Positions 1-60,490 of a DNA stretch of 64,000 bases are shown here, piece by piece. The notes under the pieces are model-generated. The model did no database searches, had not been told where the DNA came from, and worked only from the letters and a program-made list of their open reading frames with translations. Location: the NCBI RefSeq assembly GCF_006345805.1, contig NC_043000.1, positions 74,276,001 through 74,340,000 on the forward strand, in the 5' to 3' direction. The DNA is from Octopus sinensis. Taxonomy: Eukaryota. The translations under genes were made by a program, and so were the position numbers. Position 1 is the stretch's first letter, and each line of letters begins with the position of its first letter.

Positions 1-1415
1 TAAGTGACAGAATACTTAAGATTAGATTAGTGCTTCATCGTGGATTAGCAACCATTATATCGGCCTATGCCCCTCAGGTGGGGCTACCCGATGGACAGAA
101 AGACCGATTCTATGACATCCTACTGCAGACTACCTCATTGACAAACGACAGAGACCTTCTCTTTGTAGCTGGTGACTTCAATGGTCACATTGGATGACAT
201 GCTGGGGGCTTCCAAGGTGTACATGGGGGCTATGGTTATGGTTTCCGCAACGAGGAGGGAACCAGGCTGCTGGAGTTCTGCAATGCAAATGATCTTATGG
301 TTTGCAACACTAACTTCAGGAAACCTACCAGCCACCTAGTCACCTACCGATCGGGCCGACATACCAGCCAAATTGACTACATCCTTGCCAGGAAAAGGGA
401 AAGATGGCTGCTTATAAATGCCAAAACCTTCCCCGGAGAAGAATGTACCCCACAACATAAACTGGTAATTAGTGACTTTAGGATCAGGACTAAGAGGACG
501 ACCAACATGGAGAAGAAGGATCTGGAAGCTTAAAGATCCTGTGAATGGACATAGACTTAGGGACATATTACTTGAAGCCTTTGCCAAAGTAGAAGGGGAT
601 AGAGCTTCACATGGGGTAGAAGACAACTGGAGGTCTCTGAGGGACAACCTGCTGAGAGCCACAGATCAGATCTGTGGCTGGTGCAAAGTCCTCTCTTGAC
701 CCAAAATAACGTGGTGGTGGAACAATGTTGTAGACAGGGCTATTAGAGAAAAGAGACAGGCTTGGAAGGACTGGAAAAATGGTGGTAGCAGGAAATTGTA
801 TCAGACTACCAAAAGAGAAGCTAGGAGACAGGTTTATTTAGCCAGAGGGAAAACAGATAAGAAAAAATTTGCCAATGTTCTGTGCCCTGAGGACCATAGA
901 CTTGAGGTATTCCGTGTTGCAAGACAGTGTGTGAGAGAGAATCATGATGTGGTAGGAGAGAAATGTGTTCTCATGGATGATGGTTCACTTGCACTAAATG
1001 AGGATGCAAAGAGAGGGGTTTGGAGACATCATTATGAGAGGCTGCTAAATAAGGAAAATGAATGGGATAAAGAGAGTCTACCGAATGTCGACCCAACAGA
1101 GGGACCAGCTATCCGAGTTGACAGTTCCTTAGTAGGTAAGGCAATTAGTAGCATGAAGACAGGTAAAGCCCCAGGCCCATCAGGAATTACTGGAGAGATG
1201 CTTAAAATATCTGGTAGTGTCGGCTATAGCCTAGTCACCTGTATAGTTAACCAGGTGATACACGAAGGAGTCATACCCAATGACTGGTTTAGCAGCATAA
1301 TAGTCAACTGCTACAAAGGTAAGGGTGATGCTTTAGATACAAATAATTACAGAGGTATCAAGCTGTTGGATCAGGTAATGAAGGTTACGGAGAGGGTCAT
1401 AGCCCAACTGATTAA

Positions 1416-2492
1416 CCCTTTCGTTACTATATTTCTGACCAAAATATGTGTTTCAATTAATTTCTAACGTAATCATAAATTTAGTCTGGTTTCATTAAAC
1501 AACTATAACTTTTTTATTTATCAATATATTAATCTGATTTTTGGAAGATAATTTAATGAAACGTTCTCAACCAATTCTATACTATAATTTTTGTCACAAA
1601 GTGACTCTAATTGCAGGTAGATACAGGTAAATTCAACAAAATATAAAATTATTAAAATTTCTGTTCAAACATCGCTATAGAAAATAGGTTATTAGCTAAT
1701 ATTCAATTGGGTATACAACAAAATTTTACGATAGAATTTGTTATTCTGGGTAACTTTCTGATACCCATAATATTTATGGCAAAATAGTGTTAATTTCATT
1801 TAAGGTTTGGTTGGAAACCACTAACTATCCTTTCTTTCGCTTTGTTTACGTTTAGCGTAACGGTTCGTTTCCGCCGTAATGATTTCAAATAGGCTCATTC
1901 GAAAAAGTAAAAAGAAATAGTCTAAGGCTTTACTCTTCTGGGAAAGTCTGTGGCTTGGTCCAGTTTCTTCAGAAAAATCACCAAAAGAAACAGTTTTTAA
2001 ATTTTCACTCCATTCAGGTGCCAATTCGTTTTCTTTATTGCTGTTGGAGCTCTCGGATTCACAGTTTTCACTTTCGGAAAATGAAACATCAGATTCATTA
2101 TCAAATACCACATGCTTTTTTTTTTCAGTCATAGAGTTAGATTTATGAAGGTCTTCAGTAGAAAATCCTTCGAATTCTGACTCGCTGCTTGATATAATGA
2201 AATTCGTATCCACTTTTTGTCAGAATTACAAATTTTGAAAACACAATAGGAACAAATTTCGGAAAAAAATCTCCCAAAATTCACGGAATTAAAATTACAC
2301 TTCGATTTTTGTACAAAACTGTAGTTGAGCTGTTTACGAAATATAATACGTGTTTTCACGAATGTACTAAAGAGATTTGCTCTGATATTCTCATTTAAAT
2401 ATGAATAGGTAAATTCGGGCGGGTTTGGGCGGTTTGGTCACATTAACCAAAATTTTTTTCGGGTGGCTTTGGGCGGTTTGGTATCGAAAGGG
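1416..2492 (-). mobile_element. Non-autonomous piggyBac element inserted in the RTE LINE
   Basis: TTAA duplicated at 1412-1415 and 2493-2496; TIRs CCCTTTCG(T/A)TAC; subterminal GGGCGGTTTGGT repeats. Removing it restores the RTE frame (QLIKERVS). Confidence 0.93.
1821..2213 (-). pseudogene. piggyBac transposase N-terminal remnant (acidic region plus start of core)
   Basis: ORF with SESEFEGF...EW...F.EETGP...LDYFFLLF...IITAETNRYA, typical of PGBD-type N-termini. Catalytic DDD region is absent. Confidence 0.8.
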
Positions 2493-4303
2493 TTAAGGAG
2501 AGAGTCAGCTTGGATGAGATGCAGTTTGGGTTCGTGCCAGGAAAAAGCACCACTGATGCCATATTTCTGGTGAGATAGCTGCAGGAGAAATACCTAGCCA
2601 AGGATAAGCCCCTGTACCTGGCTTTCATTGACATGGAGAAAGCCTTTGACAGGGTCCCCCGATCCCTTATCTGGTGGTCAATGAGGAAACTAGGGATAGA
2701 TGAGTGGTTAGCGAGAGCTGTGCAAGCCATGTACAGAGATGCTGTAAGTAAGGTGAGGGTTGGCAACGAGTACACTAAAGAATTCAGAGTAGAGGTAGGG
2801 GTTCACCAAGGTTCAGTCCTCAGCCCCCTCCTATTTATCATAGTCCTCCAGGCAATAACGGAGGAATTCAAGACAGGATGCCCCTGGGAGCTTCTCTATG
2901 CTGATGACCTTGCTCTAATTGCTGAGTCACTATCAGAACTAGAAAAGTTTCAGATGTTGAAGCAAGGATTAGAATTGAAGGGCCTTAAAATCAACCTAGC
3001 TAAAACCAAAGTCCTAATATGTAGGAAGGCAGGCAAATCACAAACGCCTTCAGGTAGATGGCCCTGCTCGATCTGTAGAAAAACTCTATAAGATGCACCA
3101 AGTGTAAGCTATTGACACATAAGAGGTGCAGCAATGTCAAAGGAAAGCTAACTGGGAAGATAGATTTTGTATGTGGCAGATGCTCAGGAGCAATAAACAC
3201 TGAAAATGCTCAGAGACCAACTTCCGCCACATTCCAGGGAGAAAAACTAGAAGTAGTTGATAGCTTCCGTTACCTAGGTGACCAAGTCAGTAGCGGGGGT
3301 GGGTGTGCTGAAAGTGTAACTGCTAGAGTAAGAATAGCCTGGGCAAAGTTCAGAGAGCTCTTACCTCTGCTGGTGACAAAAGGCCTCTCGCTCAGAGTAA
3401 AAGGCAGACTGTATGATGCATGTGTACGAACAGCCATGCTACATGGCAGTGAAACTTGGGCCATGACTGCTGAGGATATGCGTAAGCTCGCAAGAAATGA
3501 AGCTAGTATGCTCTGATGGATGTGTAATGTCAGCATTCATACTCGACAGAGTGTAAGTACCTTGAGAGAAAAGTTGGACCTTAGAAGCATCAGTTGTGGT
3601 GTGCAAGAGAGACGTTTGCGCTGGTATGGTCATGTAGCGAGAATGGATGAAGATAGTTGTGTGAAAAAGTGCCACATCCTGGCGGTTGAGGGAACCTGTG
3701 GAAGAGGTAGACCCAGGAAAACCTGGGACGAGGTGGTGGAGAACGACCTTCGAACTTTAGGTCTCACCGAGGAAATGACCAGAGACCGAGATCTTTGGAA
3801 GTATGCTGTGCGTGGGAAGACCCGGCAGGACAAGTGAGACCATAACTCGTGGCCTCTACCTGGGACATAGCCAGCCCACTTATGCATACCTTTCCTTCTT
3901 GTGACACAAACCCTACTTGTAAAGACCTGTTGAAGCAAGTGAAAATCGAAATCGAAATCTTTCAACATCAATGGAAATTGTAGCTGAGATACCAGTGCCG
4001 GTGGCACATAAGAGAACCAGCCGAACGTAGCCGTTGCCAGCGCCATCCGATTGTGGCCGGTGGCACGTAAAAAGCACCATCCGATCGTGGCCATTTGCCA
4101 GCCTCGTCTGGCACCTGTGCAGGTGGCACATAAAAAGCACCCACTACACTCTCGGAGTAGTTGGCGTTAGGAAGGGCATCCAGCTGTAGAAACACTGCCA
4201 GATCAGACTGGGCATGGCACAGCCTTCTGGCTTCCCAGACCCCAGTTGAACCGTCCAACCCATGCTAGCATGGAAAACGGACGTTAAACGATGATGATGA
4301 TGA

Positions 4304-4798
4304 TACCATAGCCAGGGCTGTATATTATTTTTTGACCGATTTCTTTAGTTTGGTCAAACTTGCGGTAGATTTTAGGTGGATTCCAGTATTTCAGTTTATT
4401 CCACCTTTATGGTACACCTGTTCAGTTGTGCATTAAATTCAACTGATGATCTAGTGATGTGCACAATTCTTCTATATCAAAATTTTGCTGCATACCCAAT
4501 TGAATATTAGCTGATGATTCATTTTCTATGGTGATGTTTATACAAAATTTTAATATTTTTACATTTTGCTCAATTTACCTGGATTTATATGTAATTAAAG
4601 TCACGTTGAGACAAAAGTTATGCAATAGAGTTGATTAAGAACCTTTTCTTTAATTATGTTCCAAATATCACATTAATATCTTGATAAGTAAAAAATTTAC
4701 AGTTATTTAATGAAACAAGCCTAAATTCATGATTATTTTAGAATTTAATTGAAACTCATGAGGGGTGTATTTTGGTCAGAAATATAGTAACGAAAGGG
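4304..4798 (+). mobile_element. Terminal part of a related piggyBac element, opposite orientation
   Basis: 4768-4802 (tattttggtcagaaatatagtaacgaaagggTTAA) is the reverse complement of the 1412-1446 terminus. The other end is not found. Confidence 0.75.
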
Positions 4799-16540: not shown

Positions 16541-16572
16541 TCTAACCAGAATTTAATTGCTTTTATTCCATA

Positions 16573-17315
16573 TCAATCTTTACACCAACATCCCCCATGA
16601 CTATGGAATAAAAGCAATTAAATTCTAGTTGGAAAAGTACACCGAAGTCCTCCCGGAACGCATAAACCAGATCTTTATTATTGAATTCTTAAAATTTATA
16701 CTTCAGAACAATTATTTCCTATTTGATGACACATACTATCGTCAGAAATGCGGAATTGCGATGGGGACGAAAGCAGCTCCTGTTCTTGCGAACCTAATAA
16801 TGGGTTATTTTGAATTCACCTTGTATGAAGTATCACTTCAGAAATATGGTTACCCATTTTACCTCTACATAATAGAAAATTGGAAGTGATACCTGGATGA
16901 CTGCTTTATCATCTGGAAGGAGAACATCGACAAACTTTTGGATTTCAAAACAACACTAAATGACATAAATAGTAACATTCAATTCACAATGGAATATAAC
17001 AAAGAACAACTTCCATTTTTAGACATCATGATAAAAAAAGTTAACAATGAAATCATAACTGACATTTATTATAAACCAACTGATTCAAAACAATATCTTC
17101 TTTTTAACTCATGCCACCCAAAACACATAAAAATAAACATCCCTTTTAACTTAGCAAAAAGGGTCTGCACAATAGTGTCTGATAGAACAACTCGGGACCT
17201 TCATCTTCAAGACCTCAAAACAACACTTATTGAAAGACAATATCCACCCTCTCTTATCGACGAGGGAATTAAACGTGCCAAACAATTAGACACAAAAACA
17301 CTAAGAACAAAAAAA
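16573..17315 (+). mobile_element. Penelope-like RT fragment
   Basis: LYTNIPH, GIAMGTKAAP.LANL, YLDDCF (after an in-frame stop), [15 protein letters not shown]. Ends in a (TA)n array. Confidence 0.88.
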
Positions 17316-18627: not shown

Positions 18628-20586
18628 GAAAATAGTAAAAAGTGAAAAAACTACAGAAGGCTTGTTTTAAAAGGTTAAAAAATATATATTTGAGTCAATA
18701 TGTCTGAAGAATATTATAAATTTTTTTCTTACAATGACATAGTTTACAAGAAATGACCGGTTTCGCGTTTAGCTTTTCAAATTTCTTACATCGTTATGTT
18801 TATGTTGAAAAGAGTTCTAGATAAGGGGAAGTAATAAGTGATTTCTTCCTGTGTAAGGGAGATAATCGCTTAAAATTTTTTTGCCTTTCCTTTGGGGTGA
18901 ATTTCTCCGTATAAGTATGTTGGAATGGTTAAGTTTGGGCTTGTACTTTTCAATGAAGAATGTTTCCTTGTTCAGTCTCATTTGTGTTGGTGTTCCGATA
19001 GCACATTGGTAAAATGGAAAGATTAAAAATTGTGGTAGTAGTTGCTTTGCGCATTTCTCAATATGCTCACTAAAGGGTATCATTCTGTATTCTGGAAATG
19101 CAATCTGTTGTCGATGCAGTGTGCATCTACGTCTGAGTGATAGTCCCGTGGATCCCACGTAGTCTTGGTGGCAGCCCGAGCATTTTATGACATAAATTAT
19201 GTTTTCAGAGGCACAAGTAAAATTAGATTTGATCTTGAATTTCTGTCCCTCTTTGAAGAGGAATTCTGATCCTTCTAGCAGGTTTAGACATGTTGCACAG
19301 TTCGGTCTACCACATTTTTTTACTTTTGCATCCGTAATTTCAGAAAACAATTTTGCCTTTGTGAGAATCTTTTTAAGTGATTTAGGTTGTTTGTAGCTTT
19401 TAATGATTTGGTGTATGTTTAGAATTTCCTTTAATTTGGGGTCCTTATGAAGTATTGGTAAATTCTGGGTGATCATGGTGAAGGCTTCTTTGTTTCTGGG
19501 GTTGTATGTGGATATGTAAGGTAGTATTTTCGGGGAAGGTGTGTTGTTGTGTTGAACTTTTCTTAAAGTTTCTATGTTGATTTCTGTTGCACGTCTGATC
19601 CCATCCTCTATGAGTTGAGCTGAGTAATAATGTCTGTCAATTAGGGTGTTTTTGAGTTCTTGCAGTCTAAAGTTCCTGGTATTTTGTTCTGACACTATTG
19701 TGCATATCCTTCTTGCAAGGTTAAAGGGGATGTTTGTTTTAGTGTGTCTTGGGTGGCATGAATTAAAAAAAAGGTATTGTTTGGCATCTGTGACTTTGTA
19801 AACAATGTCTGTTTCTATTTTAAGGTTAATTTTTTTAATTAGTATATCCAAGAATGGGAGCTCCTTTTGGTTGTATTCCATTGTGAACTGTTTATTTGTT
19901 CAATAGGTTCAATAGGTTTTTAAATTTTAGGAGTTTATCTGTGTTTTCATTCCAGAGTATAAAACAATCGTCCAGGAATCGTTTTCAATTCTCTTTTATG
20001 TATTGAGAGAGGGGGTTTCCAAAGATTGATAAAGATTCCTGGTAAATGATTATTTCCATGTATCCCATTGTTAAGTTCGCAATGACTGGTGCTGCCCTTG
20101 TACCCATAGCAATTCCGGATTTTTGACGGTAAAATGTATTATCAAACATGAAGTGGTTATTATGTAGGATGAATTTTTTACTGATCCTTTTTGGTATTTT
20201 TTCCAGAAATTGGTCCAGCCAGAACTGTATTGCCTCTAGTCCATAATTATGAGGTATACTGGTATATGAGTTAACTACATCAAATGAAACCATGATTGTT
20301 TCTTCCTTGGCTTCTTTTGGAAGGTGGTTTAACATATCTAAGTCATCTCTGATATGGCTATCGATATGTTTAAGGAAGGGTTTCAGGAGGATGTCCATAA
20401 ATAGACTTAGTCTGTGTGTTTCACAGGTTGGGCCAGCTACAATGGGTCATAGTTTTAGGTCCTCCGGGTTAGGTGTGTGTATGTATGTCTTTGGTGATTT
20501 TTTAATGGTTTCATTTATAATTTGGCTTTTATGAATTTTTGGAAGACCATAGAAAAGGCTAGGTTTGCATTTAAAGTTTGTTAGAA
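18625..20586 (-). mobile_element. Penelope-like element, 5'-truncated, RT plus Zn-knuckle plus GIY-YIG
   Basis: SFDVV.SYTSIP, GIAMGTRAAP, RFLDD, KCGRPNCATC, IIYVIKC..C..DYVGSTG. Both ends lie in (TA)n. Same family as 26551-29324. Confidence 0.93.
18748..18787 (-). ncRNA. Minimal hammerhead ribozyme, U3-A8 core variant
   Basis: AAGAAAU-UUGAAAA-GC-UAAAC-GC-GAA-ACCGGU-C-AUUUCUU. Confidence 0.78.
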
Positions 20587-26768: not shown

Positions 26769-27881
26769 GTGACGTTATGTTTATATTGCATGGAATTATC
26801 GTTGTTTTTATTTCCAGGAGATTTCTAAATAAGGGGAGGTAGTGAGTGATTTTTTCCGGTGTAGGGGAGATAATCGCTTAAAAAATTTTTTTTCCCATTT
26901 CCTTGTTAATTTCTCTGTGTCAGTATGTTCGGATGGTTGAGTCTGGGTTTGTACTTTTCAATGAAGAATGTTTCCTTGTTCAGTCTCATTTGTGTTGATG
27001 ATCCGAAAGCACATTGGTAAAATGGGAAGATTAAAAATTGTGGCATTAGTTGCTTTGCGCATTTCTCAATGTGCTCACTAAAAGGTATCATTCTATATTC
27101 TGGGAATGCAATCTGTTGTCGATGCAGTGTGCATCTGCGCCTGAGTGATAGTCCCGTGGAACCCACATAGTCTTGGTGGCAGCCCGAGCATTTAATAACA
27201 TAAATTATGTTTTCAGAGGCACAAGTAAAGTTAGATTTGATCTTAAATTTCTGTCCCTCTTTAAGAAGAATTCTGATCCTTCCAATAGGTTAGGACATGT
27301 TGCACAGTTCGATCTACCACATTTTTTTACTTTTGCATCCGTAATTTTAGAAGACAATTTTGCCTTTGTGAGAATCTTTTTAAGTGATTAGGCTGTTTGT
27401 AGCTTTTAATGATTTGGTGTATGTTTAGAATTTCCTTTAATTTGGGGTTTTTATGAAGTATTGGTAAATTCTGGGTGATGATGGTGAAGGCTTCTTTGTT
27501 TCTGGGGTTGTATGTAGATATGTAAGGTAGTATTTTCGGGGAAGGTGTGTTGTTGTGTTGAACTTTTCTTAAAGTTTCTATGTTGATTTCTGTTGCACGT
27601 CTGATCCCATCCTCTATGAGTTGAGCTGGGTAATGTCTGTCAATTAGGGTGTTTTTGAGTTCTTGCAGTCTAAAGTTCCTGGTATTTTGTTCTGACACTA
27701 TTGTGCATATCCTTCTTGCAAGGTTGAAGGGGATGTTTGTTTTAGTGTGTCTTGGGTGGCATGAATTAAAAAGAAGGTATTGTTTGGCGTCTGTGGCTTT
27801 GTAAAAAATGTCTGTTTCTATTTTAAGGTTAATTTTTTTAATTAGTATATCCAAGAACGGGAGCTCCTTTTGGTTGTATTC

Positions 27882-29006
27882 TTTGGAAACTCCCTCTCTC
27901 AATACATAAAAGAGAATTGGAAACGATTCCTAGACGATTGTTTCATTCTCTGGAATGAAAACATAGATAAACTCCTAAAATTTAAAAACCTATTGAATAG
28001 CATAAACCCAAATATACAGTTCACAATGGAATACAACCAAAAGGAGCTCCCGTTCTTGGATATACTAATTAAAAAAATTAACCTTAAAATAGAAACAGAC
28101 ATTTTTTACAAAGCCACAGACGCCAAACAATACCTTCTTTTTAATTCATGCCACCCAAGACACACTAAAACAAACATCCCCTTCAACCTTGCAAGAAGGA
28201 TATGCACAATAGTGTCAGAACAAAATACCAGGAACTTTAGACTGCAAGAACTCAAAAACACCCTAATTGACAGACATTACCCAGCTCAACTCATAGAGGA
28301 TGGGATCAGACGTGCAACAGAAATCAACATAGAAACTTTAAGAAAAGTTCAACACAACAACACACCTTCCCCGAAAATACTACCTTACATATCTACATAC
28401 AACCCCAGAAACAAAGAAGCCTTCACCATCATCACCCAGAATTTACCAATACTTCATAAAAACCCCAAATTAAAGGAAATTCTAAACATACACCAAATCA
28501 TTAAAAGCTACAAACAGCCTAAATCACTTAAAAAGATTCTCACAAAGGCAAAATTGTCTTCTAAAATTACGGATGCAAAAGTAAAAAAATGTGGTAGATC
28601 GAACTGTGCAACATGTCCTAACCTATTGGAAGGATCAGAATTCTTCTTTAAAGAGGGACAGAAATTTAAGATCAAATCTAACTTTACTTGTGCCCCTGAA
28701 AACATAATTTATGTTATTAAATGCTCGGGCTGCCACCAAGACTACGTGGGTTCCACGGGACTATCACTCAGGCGCAGATGCACACTGCATCGACAACAGA
28801 TTGCATTCCCAGAATATAGAATGATACCTTTTAGTGAGCACATTGAGAAATGCGCAAAGCAACTAATGCCACAATTTTTAATCTTCCCATTTTACCAATG
28901 TGCTTTCGGATCATCAACACAAATGAGACTGAACAAGGAAACATTCTTCATTGAAAAGTACAAACCCAGACTCAACCATCCGAACATACTGACACAGAGA
29001 AATTAA
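27882..29006 (+). pseudogene. 5'-truncated but open Penelope RT C-half plus GIY-YIG endonuclease ORF
   Basis: WKRFLDDCF, LPFLD, SCHPRH, KCGRSNCATC, IIYVIKCSGCHQDYVGSTG, no internal stop. Confidence 0.9.
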
Positions 29007-49429: not shown

Positions 49430-51060
49430 TCTGCTGAAAGGAAAAATCTTATCTAAACAACAAATGCTGCAATTAATAAAGAGTAAGTTGTCAGAAAATG
49501 CTAAAAAAAATGTTCTCGCCTGATTATGTTGCGAACTTGATAACAGAGTTTAAGCATAAACCAGATGAAGGAGTTACCTTCAAGGCTTACTATAGAAGAT
49601 ATGAACAAATCTTCAGTAAAGAGTGCAAAGATATCAAAATGCATTTAATCTTAAGAAAACTGGCAGCAGGAGAACATGAGTGTTACAGCAATTACATACT
49701 CCTGGGAAAACCTGACATAAACTTGAAAGATACAGTAGACATATTGTGTAAAATAGTTGTTCAATACATGTTGGAAATGTTTGAACCTAGAAAAAGACAA
49801 TTAGGCAGATTACATCACATATGCTGGTAAAGTTAACAGGGAATGTGAAAAGTTCAAGCTGGACGAATTAACGTCAGATATGTTCAAGTGCCTAGTATTT
49901 ACTCAGGGACTAACTGCAGAGACAAATACAGAAGTAAGAACAAGAATTCTCGTTAAGCTGGAACAAAACCAAGCTGTAACCCTACAACAAGTGTCAGAAG
50001 AGTGTGAAAGAATAGTAAATTTAAGACATGACAGAGAAGATTGCTCCCAAGGGAAACAAGTGTGAAATAGGCAGAATAGAAATCAGTATGAACAGGATAA
50101 AAATCCAAAGACAAACCCATGTTTTGCATGTGGAAGTCTACACTTGAGAAAAACTACCCATTTAAGAAGGTGGAATGTTTTTGATGTGGAAAAATTGAAC
50201 ATTTAGAAGCGCACTGTAAAACCAAGATGACAAAACTTTGGAACAAGAAAAAAGAATAAACAAGATATCGTTGAAAGAAAATAGTAATGTAATGAAGAGG
50301 AAATTTGTAAATGTCAAATTTGAAGAGAAAAGAGTAAAAATGCAGTTAGACACTGGAAGTGATATTATCATTGTAAATGAAGAAACTTGGAAGTATGTCG
50401 GTAAGCTGGAACTATTTAAATTGTGGAATATGCCCATAAGTGTTTTGTGTAGAAATATAGTCGGTTCAGTCAAAGGTTCAAATGAAGCTGAGGGACTGAA
50501 ACAATAAATAAAACATTTATTTCCAGATGTTTGCCCAGAGGAACTGAGTTGCTGCATGAAAACAGGCAAATATTGCAGTAAAACAAGGTGCAACATCTGT
50601 ATTTAAGCCAAAACACAATGTACCATTCATGGCAAAATTACCCATGATAAAATGTGAACCTTGGCTAAAAGTAGATGATCTGTGGACAAGACTACACATC
50701 GATTTTACTGGTCCTTTAAATGGTTCATACTACTTGGTGGTAGTTGATAGTTTCTCTAAATGGCCAGAAATTTGTAAGTGTAAAAAAAACCAACTTCCTT
50801 AACTGCAACAAACATTTTATACAAGCTGTTAGCAAGTTTTGGCATCCCAGACAAGACAGTGTCTGACAATGGAATGCAGTTGGTGTCTTGAATTTAAAAA
50901 GTTCTGTAAAATGTTTGTGGTGGAACATGTAATTATGGTGCCATACCATCCCAGATCTAATGGACAAGCAGAACACTTTGTCAATAGAGCACCAAGAAAG
51001 TCGAATAAGGAGGTTACGGATGAGGTAGCTCTACAACAATTCTTAAGAGTATACTTATGG
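49430..51060 (+). mobile_element. Heavily deleted Gypsy/Ty3 internal region (gag, protease, integrase remnants)
   Basis: F.AYY.RYE..F, FKCLVF..GL (gag); MQLDTGSD (protease); HIDFTGPLNGSYYLVVVDSFSKWPE, VSDNG, PYHPRSNGQAE (integrase). RT is absent. Confidence 0.85.
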
Positions 51061-53754: not shown

Positions 53755-54430
53755 TCAGCAGTGATATGTCTTCATATGCTTAATTGTTTCATCTACCAAA
53801 GTACTATCGATTAGGATAGCTGGTCTTTCAGTTTGGTCAACACTGGGCAGATTCGTCTCCTCCCATTCATTCTCCAGTCTGTCATAATAGCATTTCCAAG
53901 CCTCTTTCTTTGCAGGATCATTAAATGCAAGTGCAGATGAATAGGTTATTTTCATCATAGAACTCCTGTAGCCTTGTTCCCTCTTCATTTCCATGAACCC
54001 CACATGCACCATGGATGATACCAGGCATGCCGCCTGACATGCCCATTGAAATCCCCAGCCATGAAAATGAGATCATTGTCACTCGTCTTTGAGGCAGCCT
54101 GCTGAAGAATATCATAAAAGCGGTCCTTTTGTTCATTTGGTAGACCCGTTTGGGGGTGCATCGGCATAATTGTCGCTATCCAATTCTGCAAAACTAGCCT
54201 GAGCTTAAGCACTCTATTGCACATTCTGACTACCTCCATCGCCTTATCCACCCATTTCTCTGCAAGAAGTATGCCTACACCACCTACCCTGTTGCTGTTA
54301 CTTTCCCAGAAAATATTATACCTATGTGTGTTGCCTGTGAGGAACCTGGCTGAAGCTCCTCTCCACTTCTTGAATGTAACATACATCAACATGCCTCCGT
54401 TCAAGCATCTCCACAATCTCATTAGACCTA
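53755..54430 (-). mobile_element. Old RTE LINE fragment (APE region)
   Basis: GGVGILLAEKW, QKDRFYD.L, AGDFNGHV, NEEGTRL; same family as 1-4303. Confidence 0.82.
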
Positions 54431-54590
54431 TTAAGATTGTTGAGATGCTTAAATGGAGGTATGTTGTTGCATTATTTTTGTCCCAAAGTGGAATCTAACT
54501 ACAGATAAATTGAGATAAATTCAGCAAAATATAAAATTATTTAAATTCTGTTCAATATTATCAGCGAAAAATGAGTAATTAGCTAATATT

Positions 54591-54975
54591 CTGGCTCGGG
54601 TGTGGCTGTGCGGTTAGAAACTTGCTTCTCAAACACATGGTTCCGATTTCAGTTTCACTGCGTGGTACCTTTGGCAAGTGTCATCTGCTATAGCCATGTG
54701 CTGACCAAAGCCTTGTGGGTGGATTTCGCAGACAGAAACTGAAAGAAGCCTGTTGTGATGTATGTGTGTGTGTGTCAGTGTTTGTCCTCCACCACCGCTT
54801 GACAGCCAGCTGTAGTTTATATCCCTGTAACTTAGTAGTTTGGCAAAAGGAACCGATGAATGAGTACTAGGCTTCATAAGATAATAAGTCCTAGGGTCAA
54901 TTTGTTTGATGAAAACCCTTTAAACCATTGCCCCAGCATGGCTGGAATCAAATTACTGAAACAAGTAAAAGATTC
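54591..54975 (+). mobile_element. tRNA-derived CORE-type SINE
   Basis: Homologous to 38980-39357 along its length; splits the piggyBac copy at attc|aattg. Confidence 0.82.
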
Positions 54976-55357
54976 AATTGAGTATACAACAAAATTTTAA
55001 TACAGAATTGCACGCATTATTGGATTATTTATCAGTTTGTAATTCTGGATAACTTTCTCATGATAATGTTGATAGCAAAAAAATGCGCAGGTTTGTTCTT
55101 TGTTTATATTCTGTGTAACAGTAAGTTTATGCAGTGATCACTTCAAACAAACTTAAGAGGAAAAAGAATAATAAATAAACTAATGACTTCATTGTCTTGG
55201 AATGACTGTAGATAGGTCCAGTCTCTTCTAAGAAAATCAGTTTTGAAATGATTATTCCATTCAGATACAAATTCATAGTCTTTATTGCTATCAGAGTTGT
55301 CAGAATCACTTGTTTCACTTTTAGAAATCAAAATTTATACAGTTCTATATTTAAGAG

Positions 55358-55861
55358 ATGAAGAATTGTTTACATTATTTACATTTGACGGATATTTGTC
55401 CTCATCTTGTTTGTTGTTAACACAACATTTTGGCTGATATACCATCCTGTGGGATGAAGTTAAAATAATAGAGAACACCACTGGAAAATACGAAAAGAGC
55501 AGCACATATTCTAGGACACAACAACCTCCTAAGCAGACCGAGTGCAGATATGAGTAGCATATGGGAACTGGTATTAAGGAAGGATAGGAAAATATTTGAT
55601 TTATAAGCCCTAAAATTCACTCCATAATTGCCCATGTGGTTAAGAACGTGAGCTACAAACCCCAAGATTCCGAGTTCGATTCCAGGCAGTGACCTGAATA
55701 ATAATAACATCAAAAAATAGAAATGAAAACTCAGGTTTGAAATTTTCCCAAGACACCTGATGAAGGCTGTAGGGTATATCAGCTGAAACGTGTTAACATC
55801 AAACAAGATGAAGACAAATATCTGTCAAATGTAAATAATGTAAGTAATCCAATTCTTAATC
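55358..55861 (+). mobile_element. Non-coding fold-back element with tRNA-like A/B boxes and hammerhead motif
   Basis: Inverted arms about 55358-55447 / 55768-55861; A box about 55628-55639, B box gagttcgattcc 55672-55683; acac-ctgatga-aggctg..cagct-gaaacgt at 55753-55795. Confidence 0.62.
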
Positions 55862-56565
55862 ACACATGTATCTTTTATGTTCACCATATACATTTTAGTA
55901 GATTTTTCCAGGTTTTCTTTTGAAAAATCATTCAGAATTCAGATTGATGATATGAAAATGGTATCCAATTTTTGCCCATAGTAAAAAATTTCAGAAAATT
56001 GATGTGGAAAAAAACTCCTCCAAAATTCACAGATCTCAGTTATCACATCAACTGTAACTTAAATTTTCAATGAGTAAAACCAGTTGTTTTTGCAAATCTA
56101 CTAATGAGATATGAACTAAAATTCTCATTTAAATATGAACCAGTTATCTTGGATGGATTTGGGTGGGTTGTTTTAGGCAGCTTTGTAATAAAATGGTTGA
56201 ATTTTATAAAAAAATACAATAAATGTGGGAGTGATACCTAAAAGGATATTTTAAAAACTGCATAATCTATGCTGTAAATTATTATATATTAACATCTACT
56301 TTTCCATCTTACAATGTATTGCATAGGCTATACAGCCCATGTCTGGTTATTATTATACATTTTCATCTTGTTAGACCTGATCTTCTGAAGTCCAGTATAT
56401 CTTGGTATTAACTTTTTATTAACATGTCCATGAACACCCATATAAACATGTTCAAATTTAAGTAAGAATACTCATTTAAATTTCATTACTGCATTAGTGA
56501 TGGTGATGATAACAATGACATTAGTTTTATTTGGAACTTCATTGGATCACTTTTTTTTTTTTCAG

Positions 56566-59235: not shown

Positions 59236-60490
59236 CGAGGGACGTTCAATAAGTAATGCCCCTGACCCACTTGCAGTTTGATCTAGCTGAAATTTTGCAT
59301 GTGCAATTATTCATATCTTTAGAGATTAAATGGCGAATTACAGCTCTGAACTACTTGTGGTTTCTGATTTACAGGTGTTTGAACTGAGTCAAGTGTGAAA
59401 TGGAGCCTGTTGAGTGTCGAGCAGTGGTCTGGTTTTTGTATTTGAAAGGACGCACACCACAGGAGACTTTTGATGAAATGAAAGTAACTTATGGTGATGA
59501 TGCCCCATCATATGACCTTGTAAAACGCTGGCATCGTGAATTCAAACATGGCCGGAACTCTGTGGAAACAGCTCCCAGATCTGGTCGCCCCGCTTCTGCC
59601 ATTGATGAGGCATCTGTCCGTCAAGTTGAGGCTGCCATTTTGGAAGATCGACGCATAACTATTCGCCAAATAGCCCATTAGGTCAAGATTAGTACCGGGT
59701 CTGTGGAAACTATCATTCATGACCATTTGCATATGCAAAAGGTGTCTGCCAGATGGATTCCCAGGCTGCTCACACCTTTCCAGAAGCAAGAACACGTCGA
59801 GTGCTCGAGGATGAATTTGGAGATGTGCCAAGAAGATGAGTCAAAATTTTTCAAAAGACTGATTACACAGAATGAAACCTGGGTCCATCACTATGATTCA
59901 GAGACCAAAGCCCAGTCAATGCAGTGGAAGCACCGTGACTCACCTCCTCCAAAGAAGGCAAGGGTGCAGCCCTCCGCTGGCAAGGTCATGCTCACAGTCT
60001 TCTGGGACCAGGACGGAGTAGTGATGACAGATTTCCTGGCAAAGGGTACCACAATTACAGGAGCCTATTATCCTTCACTTTTGAGGAAATTAAGAGAAGC
60101 TATCAAAATCAAGAGGCGGGGCAAGATCAGCAAAGCATCCTCCTCCTGCAGGACAACGCTCCGGTCCACAACTCGCGTCTCGCCAGATCAGAAGCACAGG
60201 CGTGCGGCTATGAACTCCTCCTGATTTTCACCTCTTCCCAGCCATGAAGTTGTTTTTGAAAGGAAAGCATTTCCCAGATGATGCAACCTTGATTTCTGAA
60301 GTCACGTCGTAGTTGGAGGACCAAGCTGGGGTCTTCTACAAAAACGGTCTCCAAAGCTGCATCAAACGATGGGAGAAATGCGTAACTCTGGATGGTTCCT
60401 ATACAGAAAAAGACTAATAACTGTGCCAAGTTTCGTTGCTCTACTGTTATGGGAAGTGGGTCAGGGGCATTACTTATTGAACGCCCCTCG
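59236..60490 (+). mobile_element. Full-length mariner element with inactivated transposase
   Basis: TA TSDs at 59234 and 60491; ~37 bp TIRs cgaggg(a/g)cgttcaataagtaatgcccctgacccactt; ATG 59400, WIPRLL, KVMLTVFWD, LQDNA. Stop at 59679, first D changed to N (QNETW), frameshift near 60135, YSPDLAP region deleted. Confidence 0.95.

Follow-up and report, generated by a model that had tools for sequence, protein, structure and literature searches.

A 5′-truncated Penelope/Poseidon-type element in the Octopus sinensis genome, and a tRNA-headed family that may be read by RNA polymerase III

A fold-back insertion and its parts

The window analysed here is a 64,000-nucleotide stretch of Octopus sinensis DNA (assembly GCF_006345805.1, contig NC_043000.1, positions 74,276,001 to 74,340,000 of the forward strand). 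Spanning ~55338–55848 is an insertion in which the C-terminus of an endonuclease, a stop codon, a tRNA-like head, an (AAT)n tract and a minimal hammerhead follow one another, accompanied by a fold-back arm bearing the tail of a Penelope/Poseidon-type element (PLE). Its parts, with the basis for each, are:

55326..55337 (+): possible worn target-site duplication (TSD), partner at 55846–55858; a weak match, from sequence only
55338..55447 (−): inverted (fold-back) 5′-truncated arm; profile match to model positions 2293–2406, inverted repeat
55446..55606 (+): C-terminal ~50 codons of a PLE GIY-YIG endonuclease; three-frame translations, blastx to P0001/P0003/P0005
55607..55635 (+): spacer from stop codon to tRNA-like head; 863 exact genome matches of a 20-mer over stop and spacer
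55636..55695 (+): tRNA-derived head; tRNA alignments, tRNA profile, genome motif matches
55697..55712 (+): (AAT)n tract; length differs between copies
55723..55725 (+): candidate start ATG; family-level frame shared with hammerhead, tail and ORF (L243, L244, L247)
55753..55794 (+): minimal type I hammerhead; stem I, CUGAUGA, extra A, stem II, GAAAC
55795..55848 (+): element 3′ end, first (short) end point; without tail on this side

The inverted arms (55365–55423 and 55790–55848) extend over 59 nt and are 92% complementary, confirming the fold-back described by the first-pass annotation of this stretch. The left arm contains the 3′ half of the hammerhead and the 3′ end of the element, along with a 30-nt PLE tail found only on that (55338) side; the limits originally drawn, 55358..55861, therefore shift to 55338 on the left and to ~55842–55848 on the right. 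The insertion had also been called non-coding, whereas the C-terminus of a PLE GIY-YIG endonuclease, broken by two frameshifting deletions, occupies 55446–55606, with a TAA stop at 55604–55606 and a blastx match of 56% to P0001 (E = 4e-8, four-protein database). In other copies, this remnant continues upstream into the GIY-YIG endonuclease and reverse transcriptase (RT) of an RT-EN ORF.

The B box of the head (55672–55683) lies where it had been placed, followed 70 nt on by the 5′ half of a hammerhead (ACAC-CTGATGA-A-GGCTG, 55753–55769) and then by CAGCT-GAAAC at 55780–55789. The A box claimed for this copy is another matter, as comparison with a profile of long copies revealed a deletion of the first 14 nt of the head that removed most of it. 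The hammerhead is damaged, as had been recognised, having lost 3 nt at the cleavage triplet, and the ancestral reading proposed for it corresponds to the commonest letter at every family column. A second B-box-like motif, GGTTCGAAAT, occurs in the family linker between the ATG and the hammerhead (55733–55746, + strand, in the window). The supposed host of the insertion, an old piggyBac, is unconfirmed: Pfam returned no transposase in the four flank frames tested, and a DNWF motif on the minus strand at ~56138–56149 is the sole flank feature that would presumably fit one.

The window copy is a 5′-truncated copy of an autonomous PLE. As such it is an ordinary dead truncation, and the unusual thing is its family.

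Architecture and classification of the family

Exact motif counts, which are lower bounds of differing stringency and not copy numbers, gave 9,889 genome matches for a 24-mer of the 3′ end, 4,355 for a degenerate 26-mer of the head, and 863 for the 20-mer at the stop codon, the count thus jumping from 863 to 4,355 across the ~40 nt leading from the stop and spacer to the head. The element was also present in DNA sequencing runs under four organism labels; four insect or invertebrate metatranscriptomes contained small word shares only, which are not evidence of the element, and no relative was found among viral contigs. Copies diverge by ~7% from the column majority and descend from one or few sources, and the family looks dead. 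Two near-identical insertion pairs with shared flanks (L117/L118 and L116/L119, G000:C1:41.0–41.2 Mb) are local segmental duplications, and count twice in some tallies.

The monomer consists of the head, (AAT)n, the ATG, a minimal hammerhead with tail, an RT and GIY-YIG ORF of ~850 codons, the stop and 30 nt leading to the next head. In copies retaining the 5′ part of the ORF, the hammerhead and tail form its first codons, in frame, and in long copies the head sits just 5′ of the ORF start. Among 30 loci, partial tandems running from an endonuclease end through a head into an ORF start were observed at L243, L263 and L265, and L249 and L262 start at the head and then read into the ORF. The homologues P0003 and P0120 open with a hammerhead-like translation. 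A 551-aa frame in L141 contains RT motifs and CVYSIPxSCGRLYKGET, with two cysteines between GIY and YIG, and had no Pfam match as such; 1,659 homologues matched RT families, some of them also PF01541, and RVT_1 was found in all four homologues tested.

The combination of RT and C-terminal GIY-YIG endonuclease in a single ORF is that of EN+ PLEs of the Penelope/Poseidon clade. In addition, no extra Zn-finger motif was seen by eye in the RT-EN linker of the family, and a linker of this kind, under the Zn-finger criterion for PLE clades given in the available text of PMC8557442, points to the same clade; sequence features thus point to membership of the Penelope/Poseidon EN+ PLEs. Pseudo-LTRs arising from partial tandems, 5′ truncation, an inverted arm, and a 30–40 nt tail at one end with a variable TSD are likewise PLE characters. 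The hammerhead has the short helix I, the extra base before stem II and the palindromic helix III remnant of the minimal hammerheads outlined for PLEs in PMC4209133.

Other PLE sequences are found in the window. A fragment at 16560–17300 (+) belongs to a second PLE family, whose copies are 92–97% alike and which has a cysteine motif in the RT-EN linker, making it Neptune-like by the criterion in the available text of PMC8557442; it is without a tRNA head, and the canonical hammerhead pattern had no match in the four of its loci that were checked. PLE ORF fragments ~30% identical to P0003 lie at 19060–20584 (−) and 27519–28844 (both strands), the latter with an inversion.

The first-pass annotation had envisaged a tRNA-type promoter fused to a hammerhead in a separate, SINE-like retrozyme mobilised by Penelope. 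Head and hammerhead are linked across the family, as it had proposed: judged by eye, 27 of 30 head-anchored copies continue from the head into the PLE linker. This, with the 4,355 head-motif matches, rules out an independent SINE inserted in the window copy only. The family hammerhead is also intact by column majority, with 5,139 intact core-box matches genome-wide against 22 for a reversed control. Among head-bearing forms, the short head-to-tail unit showing the footprints of Penelope insertion is the most frequent, so that the picture of a SINE-like unit moved by Penelope fits much of the family, though not the window copy, which is a truncated autonomous element. The separate fusion did not survive, since the whole short unit lies within the autonomous element as its own pseudo-LTR and ORF start. 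No free parent SINE with a different body was seen among the 30 head-anchored copies, three of which end after the head or tract, and a non-coding tRNA-derived SINE separate from its partner is contradicted by the endonuclease codons of the window copy. Nor does the term retrozyme apply in its published sense, as the cleavage site shows no accumulation of 5′ ends, and the copies in a sample of 90 loci are mostly single units or inverted pairs, with a few direct neighbours.

The tRNA-derived head, 5′ ends and Pol III terminators

Along its full length, the head can be aligned colinearly with 27 different genomic tRNAs (z 3.1–5.8 versus shuffles), Cys, Arg, Thr and Lys tRNAs scoring alike as its source, and at every column of the A and B boxes the family majority is the box letter. 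A strict A/B-box pattern proved too insensitive (3 of 20 positives), and a tRNA profile was used instead. This matched 21 of 48 copies and none of 48 shuffles; at a sensitivity of only 44%, it found no match downstream of 36 related PLE loci or in 30 copies of the second PLE family. The head no longer folds as a cloverleaf, and ARAGORN called no tRNA. At E-value thresholds, Rfam found neither tRNA nor hammerhead in the window, 20 loci and one short copy, and the window head and hammerhead folded no better than shuffles (z −0.66 and 0.38). At the family level, the end of the spacer pairs with the first bases of the head in a short hairpin.

Mapping of 5′ ends covered 120 loci, selected through their 3′ or ribozyme motifs in the order of their position on the chromosomes and comprising 165 units with a 3′ end. 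Of these units, 58 extend as far as the head, and in 40 of the 58 the end falls inside a 28-nt interval at the head start, a rate of 0.025 per nt that is about ten times that inside the ORF (0.001–0.003 per nt), giving the family a discrete 5′ end of the SINE type. Among 83 full heads, 11 were ORF-linked by script and 8 more by eye, the remaining 64 being head-starting; judged by eye, the 30 head-anchored copies divided into 7 that are ORF-linked and 23 that start at the head. The spacer letters at −9/−8 are present in 0 of 23 head-start units retaining the hairpin versus 9 of 11 ORF-linked units, a pattern compatible with RNA that begins a few bases upstream of the head and with subsequent fold-back; the hairpin could, however, itself cause the 5′-end peak. 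A second peak (36 of 115) falls on the (AAT)n tract, through which units are fused to other AAT tracts; as no promoter is proposed there, this peak counts against the promoter reading. L047, L108, L110 and L247 are recurrent chimeras, in which the (AAT)n is joined to the AAT tail of one other repeat family.

Compound insertions displayed one short and one tailed end in 41 of 46 cases, and TSDs of at least 12 nt in 25 of 46, compared with 1 of 138 mismatched pairs.

RNA polymerase III (Pol III) terminates at stretches of at least four T (T4), and is normally limited to short non-coding RNAs. When 112 in-frame segments of natural copies (76 kb) were compared with synonymous shuffling, 32 sense-strand T4 runs were observed versus 117 ± 9 expected. 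No T4 site is common to more than 4 of ~44 copies, and the column majorities are without a run of four T in 2,396 + 439 columns, the null mean for the 2,396 columns only being 4.2 runs, with P(0) = 0.012. The evidence is that of one ancestral sequence, in which ~4–5 runs would be expected, and its weight is P ~0.01, not the pooled z. G4 is likewise depleted in the family (23 versus 44), and beside the T4 depletion stands a Phe TTT share of 0.31 versus 0.55.

The controls gave T4 counts of 63 versus 88 expected in 14 RTE ORFs; 324 versus 237 in a headless PLE of the same genome, with 11 near-fixed sites; and 564 versus 498 in related PLE loci (75 of 80, five with <900 nt aligned having been dropped). 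The median among these 75 relatives was 3.8 per kb versus 0.42 in the family, with one relative lacking T4 in 1.4 kb and two having one T4 in 1.8–2.3 kb. Genome searches with P0001 and P0090 listed largely family copies, and no headless Poseidon control was among the matches listed. The T4 loss accordingly appears specific to the family among the controls examined.

Two RNA-seq runs of a related organism contained 11,327 and 8,687 element reads among ~12–13 million, distributed equally between strands, with 67% and 71% continuing into unlike flanks. No piles of read starts or ends were seen in these runs, for which the reference copy lacked a B box and the library type was unsuited; the pattern fits passive read-through of embedded copies, and is uninformative on Pol III. 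At L145:2084–2334, linked substitutions present in ~30–50% of RNA reads (runs X23 and X24) are rare in DNA contigs, and probably reflect one highly expressed embedded copy.

Possible use of Pol III, related systems and neighbouring repeats

An ORF without Pol III stop signals, together with short copies that start at the head, suggests that the whole element is likely Pol III-read. In the explanation considered probable, a captured tRNA promoter drives the PLE. Transcripts would start a few bases before the head, and Pol III could read through the whole monomer because no T4 terminator interrupts it. The PLE protein would then nick AT-rich DNA and begin reverse transcription internally, at two sites ~30 nt apart past the hammerhead, a step modelled on Anolis Poseidon, where the tail is described as lying between two RT start sites and the nuclease as preferring ATT (PMC11167929, as far as its text is available). 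Priming in the first repeat would run off at the RNA 5′ end, giving SINE-like copies of 250–350 nt, and priming in a downstream repeat would give truncated, ORF-bearing copies like that in the window, a single transcript type thus yielding both. Inverted arms would result when the end of the cDNA folds back on the 5′ hairpin or jumps to another template, and hammerhead cleavage would not define the inserted ends. The family may have originated when a PLE copy truncated near its ATG joined an (AAT)n tail behind a tRNA-derived sequence, an origin proposed because units still join other AAT tracts (L047, L108, L110, L247).

A stronger version, in which an autonomous retrotransposon captured a tRNA promoter, purged T4 from its 2.6-kb ORF and so switched to Pol III, its dual internal priming turning one transcript into long and SINE-like copies alike, is offered tentatively and falls somewhat short of probable. 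Counting against the putative use of Pol III for the whole element, uncapped Pol III RNA needs a route to translation that is unexplained, and PMC10886601, in the text at hand, argues that autonomous elements must use Pol II.

The translation problem would be avoided if Pol III made only the short unit and the autonomous element relied on Pol II, by read-through or from an unseen promoter. Head-initiated RNAs, some from source copies of their own, would then be mobilised in trans as a Penelope-dependent SINE, the view closest to that of the first-pass annotation, with a precedent in the Pol III promoter and hammerhead of Sm-alpha (PMC6765202, in part). Differences between the two forms are consistent with this: hammerhead position 7 is A in 12 of 39 head-start versus 1 of 28 ORF-linked units (p = 0.005), the variant goes together with a change downstream of the B box (p = 6e-5), and head-start AAT tracts are longer (median A box-to-hammerhead distance 160 versus 126 nt). 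However, the A variant also occurs in the ORF-reading copies L248 and L267, the ORF-linked loci were picked by similarity searches, with a possible bias in the variant counts, and divergence is equal in short and ORF-linked units (7.1% versus 7.3%). As the T4 loss along the ORF is also left unaccounted for, this division of labour is judged unlikely, while retaining some weight.

It is improbable that the pseudo-LTR simply picked up an old tRNA-SINE or pseudogene, making the head a passenger, with RT stalling or cDNA fold-back at the hairpin producing the 5′-end peak and chance the absence of T4. Ends fall at or beyond the 5′ side of the short stem and not at its 3′ base, in many head-start units the neighbour is unique flank or a distant arm and no palindrome is present, majority letters still spell the A and B boxes, and the T4 loss is confined to the family among the controls; these observations have to be set against the 5-bp hairpin at the peak, the commonness of palindromic junctions (at least 12 nt in 9 of 72), the (AAT)n peak, which demonstrates that sequence features alone suffice for peaks, and RNA-seq with read-through only. 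Far less credible still is a retrozyme cycle of the kind proposed in PMC4209133 (available in part), in which the hammerhead cleaves multimers and circularised RNA gets inserted. The family hammerhead is intact, its boxes are intact in 30 of 77 sampled units, and a dimer fold allows pairing of two copies via the palindromic GAAACGU region, but cleavage-defined element ends were rejected, since 5′ ends are without excess at the cleavage site (12 of 158 in a 30-nt bin); 3′ ends lie ~55 and 90 nt beyond it, and cleavage is dispensable for Anolis Poseidon insertion in vitro, according to the available text of PMC11167929.

Comparisons with known systems rest on such text as is available for each. 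The single RT and C-terminal GIY-YIG ORF, the partial tandems, the inverted truncated arm, the one-sided tail between two end points, the AT-rich targets, the hammerhead at the ORF start and the promoter position in the pseudo-LTR are shared with Penelope/Poseidon PLEs such as Anolis Poseidon PAc (PMC11167929) and Drosophila virilis Penelope (PMC2377424); placement of the ribozyme at the ORF start was already known from Anolis Poseidon (PMC11167929). Unlike Penelope, which has a LINE-like internal promoter with an intron, the octopus family has a tRNA-derived A/B-box head at that place, most of its head-bearing copies start at the head, and its sense strand is without T4 runs.

The schistosome Sm-alpha and Sj-alpha repeats (PMC6765202, PMC2770079) resemble the family in their tRNA-related Pol III promoter followed by a hammerhead and in their high copy number. 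They are described, however, as non-coding, SINE-like tandem repeats processed by the ribozyme, with no autonomous PLE linked in those accounts, whereas the octopus unit forms the end repeat of an autonomous PLE and has ends that are not determined by cleavage. The TRIMp3 elements Cassandra, Helenus and Ajax (PMC10886601) likewise captured a small-RNA-derived Pol III promoter in a terminal repeat, but are non-autonomous LTR elements, whereas the autonomous octopus element itself bears the head. Metazoan non-LTR retrozymes (PMC7229834; bioRxiv 10.64898/2026.07.22.740005) are also short hammerhead units related to PLE pseudo-LTRs, and have been proposed as users of PLE enzymes; in the text available they differ in their tandem arrays, a hammerhead per unit and circular RNAs, with no tRNA head mentioned. 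The octopus family, in contrast, consists mostly of single units and inverted pairs.

Among octopus SINEs, OK, OR1 and OR2 are candidates for identity with the short unit. If so, the unit would be long known, and the PLE link would still be the addition. Ohshima and Okada described octopus tRNA-derived SINEs in 1994, as cited in the available text of PMC4758252, and the unit may already be present in that paper, in Repbase entries or in supplements. The main text, as available, of a 2026 octopus repeat annotation (PMC13282606) has no mention of hammerheads, and no tRNA-headed or Pol III-read PLE was found in a literature search outside which lay most subscription journals, Repbase, SINEBase and supplements. 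Already known are the PLE insertion shapes, minimal hammerheads (PMC4209133, in part) and pseudo-LTR-derived retrozymes (bioRxiv 10.64898/2026.07.22.740005, in part); the 5′-end statistics and the terminator test with controls are added here.

In mobile elements, Pol III promoters have been taken as the mark of short non-autonomous passengers such as SINEs and TRIMp3 (PMC10886601, in part). A PLE ORF shaped by Pol III termination rules would, if real, break the division between Pol III passengers and Pol II autonomous elements, and raise the question of how an uncapped, ribozyme-bearing RNA gets translated. One sequence would then be both a SINE and its mobilising partner, with tens of thousands of SINE-like copies, offering a simple route to the birth of a SINE without a LINE. 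In these genomes, a large class of repeats that annotations probably list as SINE would be a Penelope end repeat, and its many inverted pairs a potential source of double-stranded RNA.

Several other repeats surround the insertion. The repeat at ~54590–54965 (+), with a tRNA-like start and a (TG)n tract, is common in the fetched loci (by eye), and looks like a different SINE. To judge from motifs, 49805–50802 (+) and 59388–60224 (+) hold degraded LTR-retroelement-like protease/integrase frames and a mariner-like transposase. At 53755–54494 (−) lies an RTE-type LINE fragment, whose inverted end is marked by a 45-bp fold-back at 54381–54472; its relatives include open frames of >1,000 aa, four of which are 99% alike, a similarity that suggests recent RTE activity.
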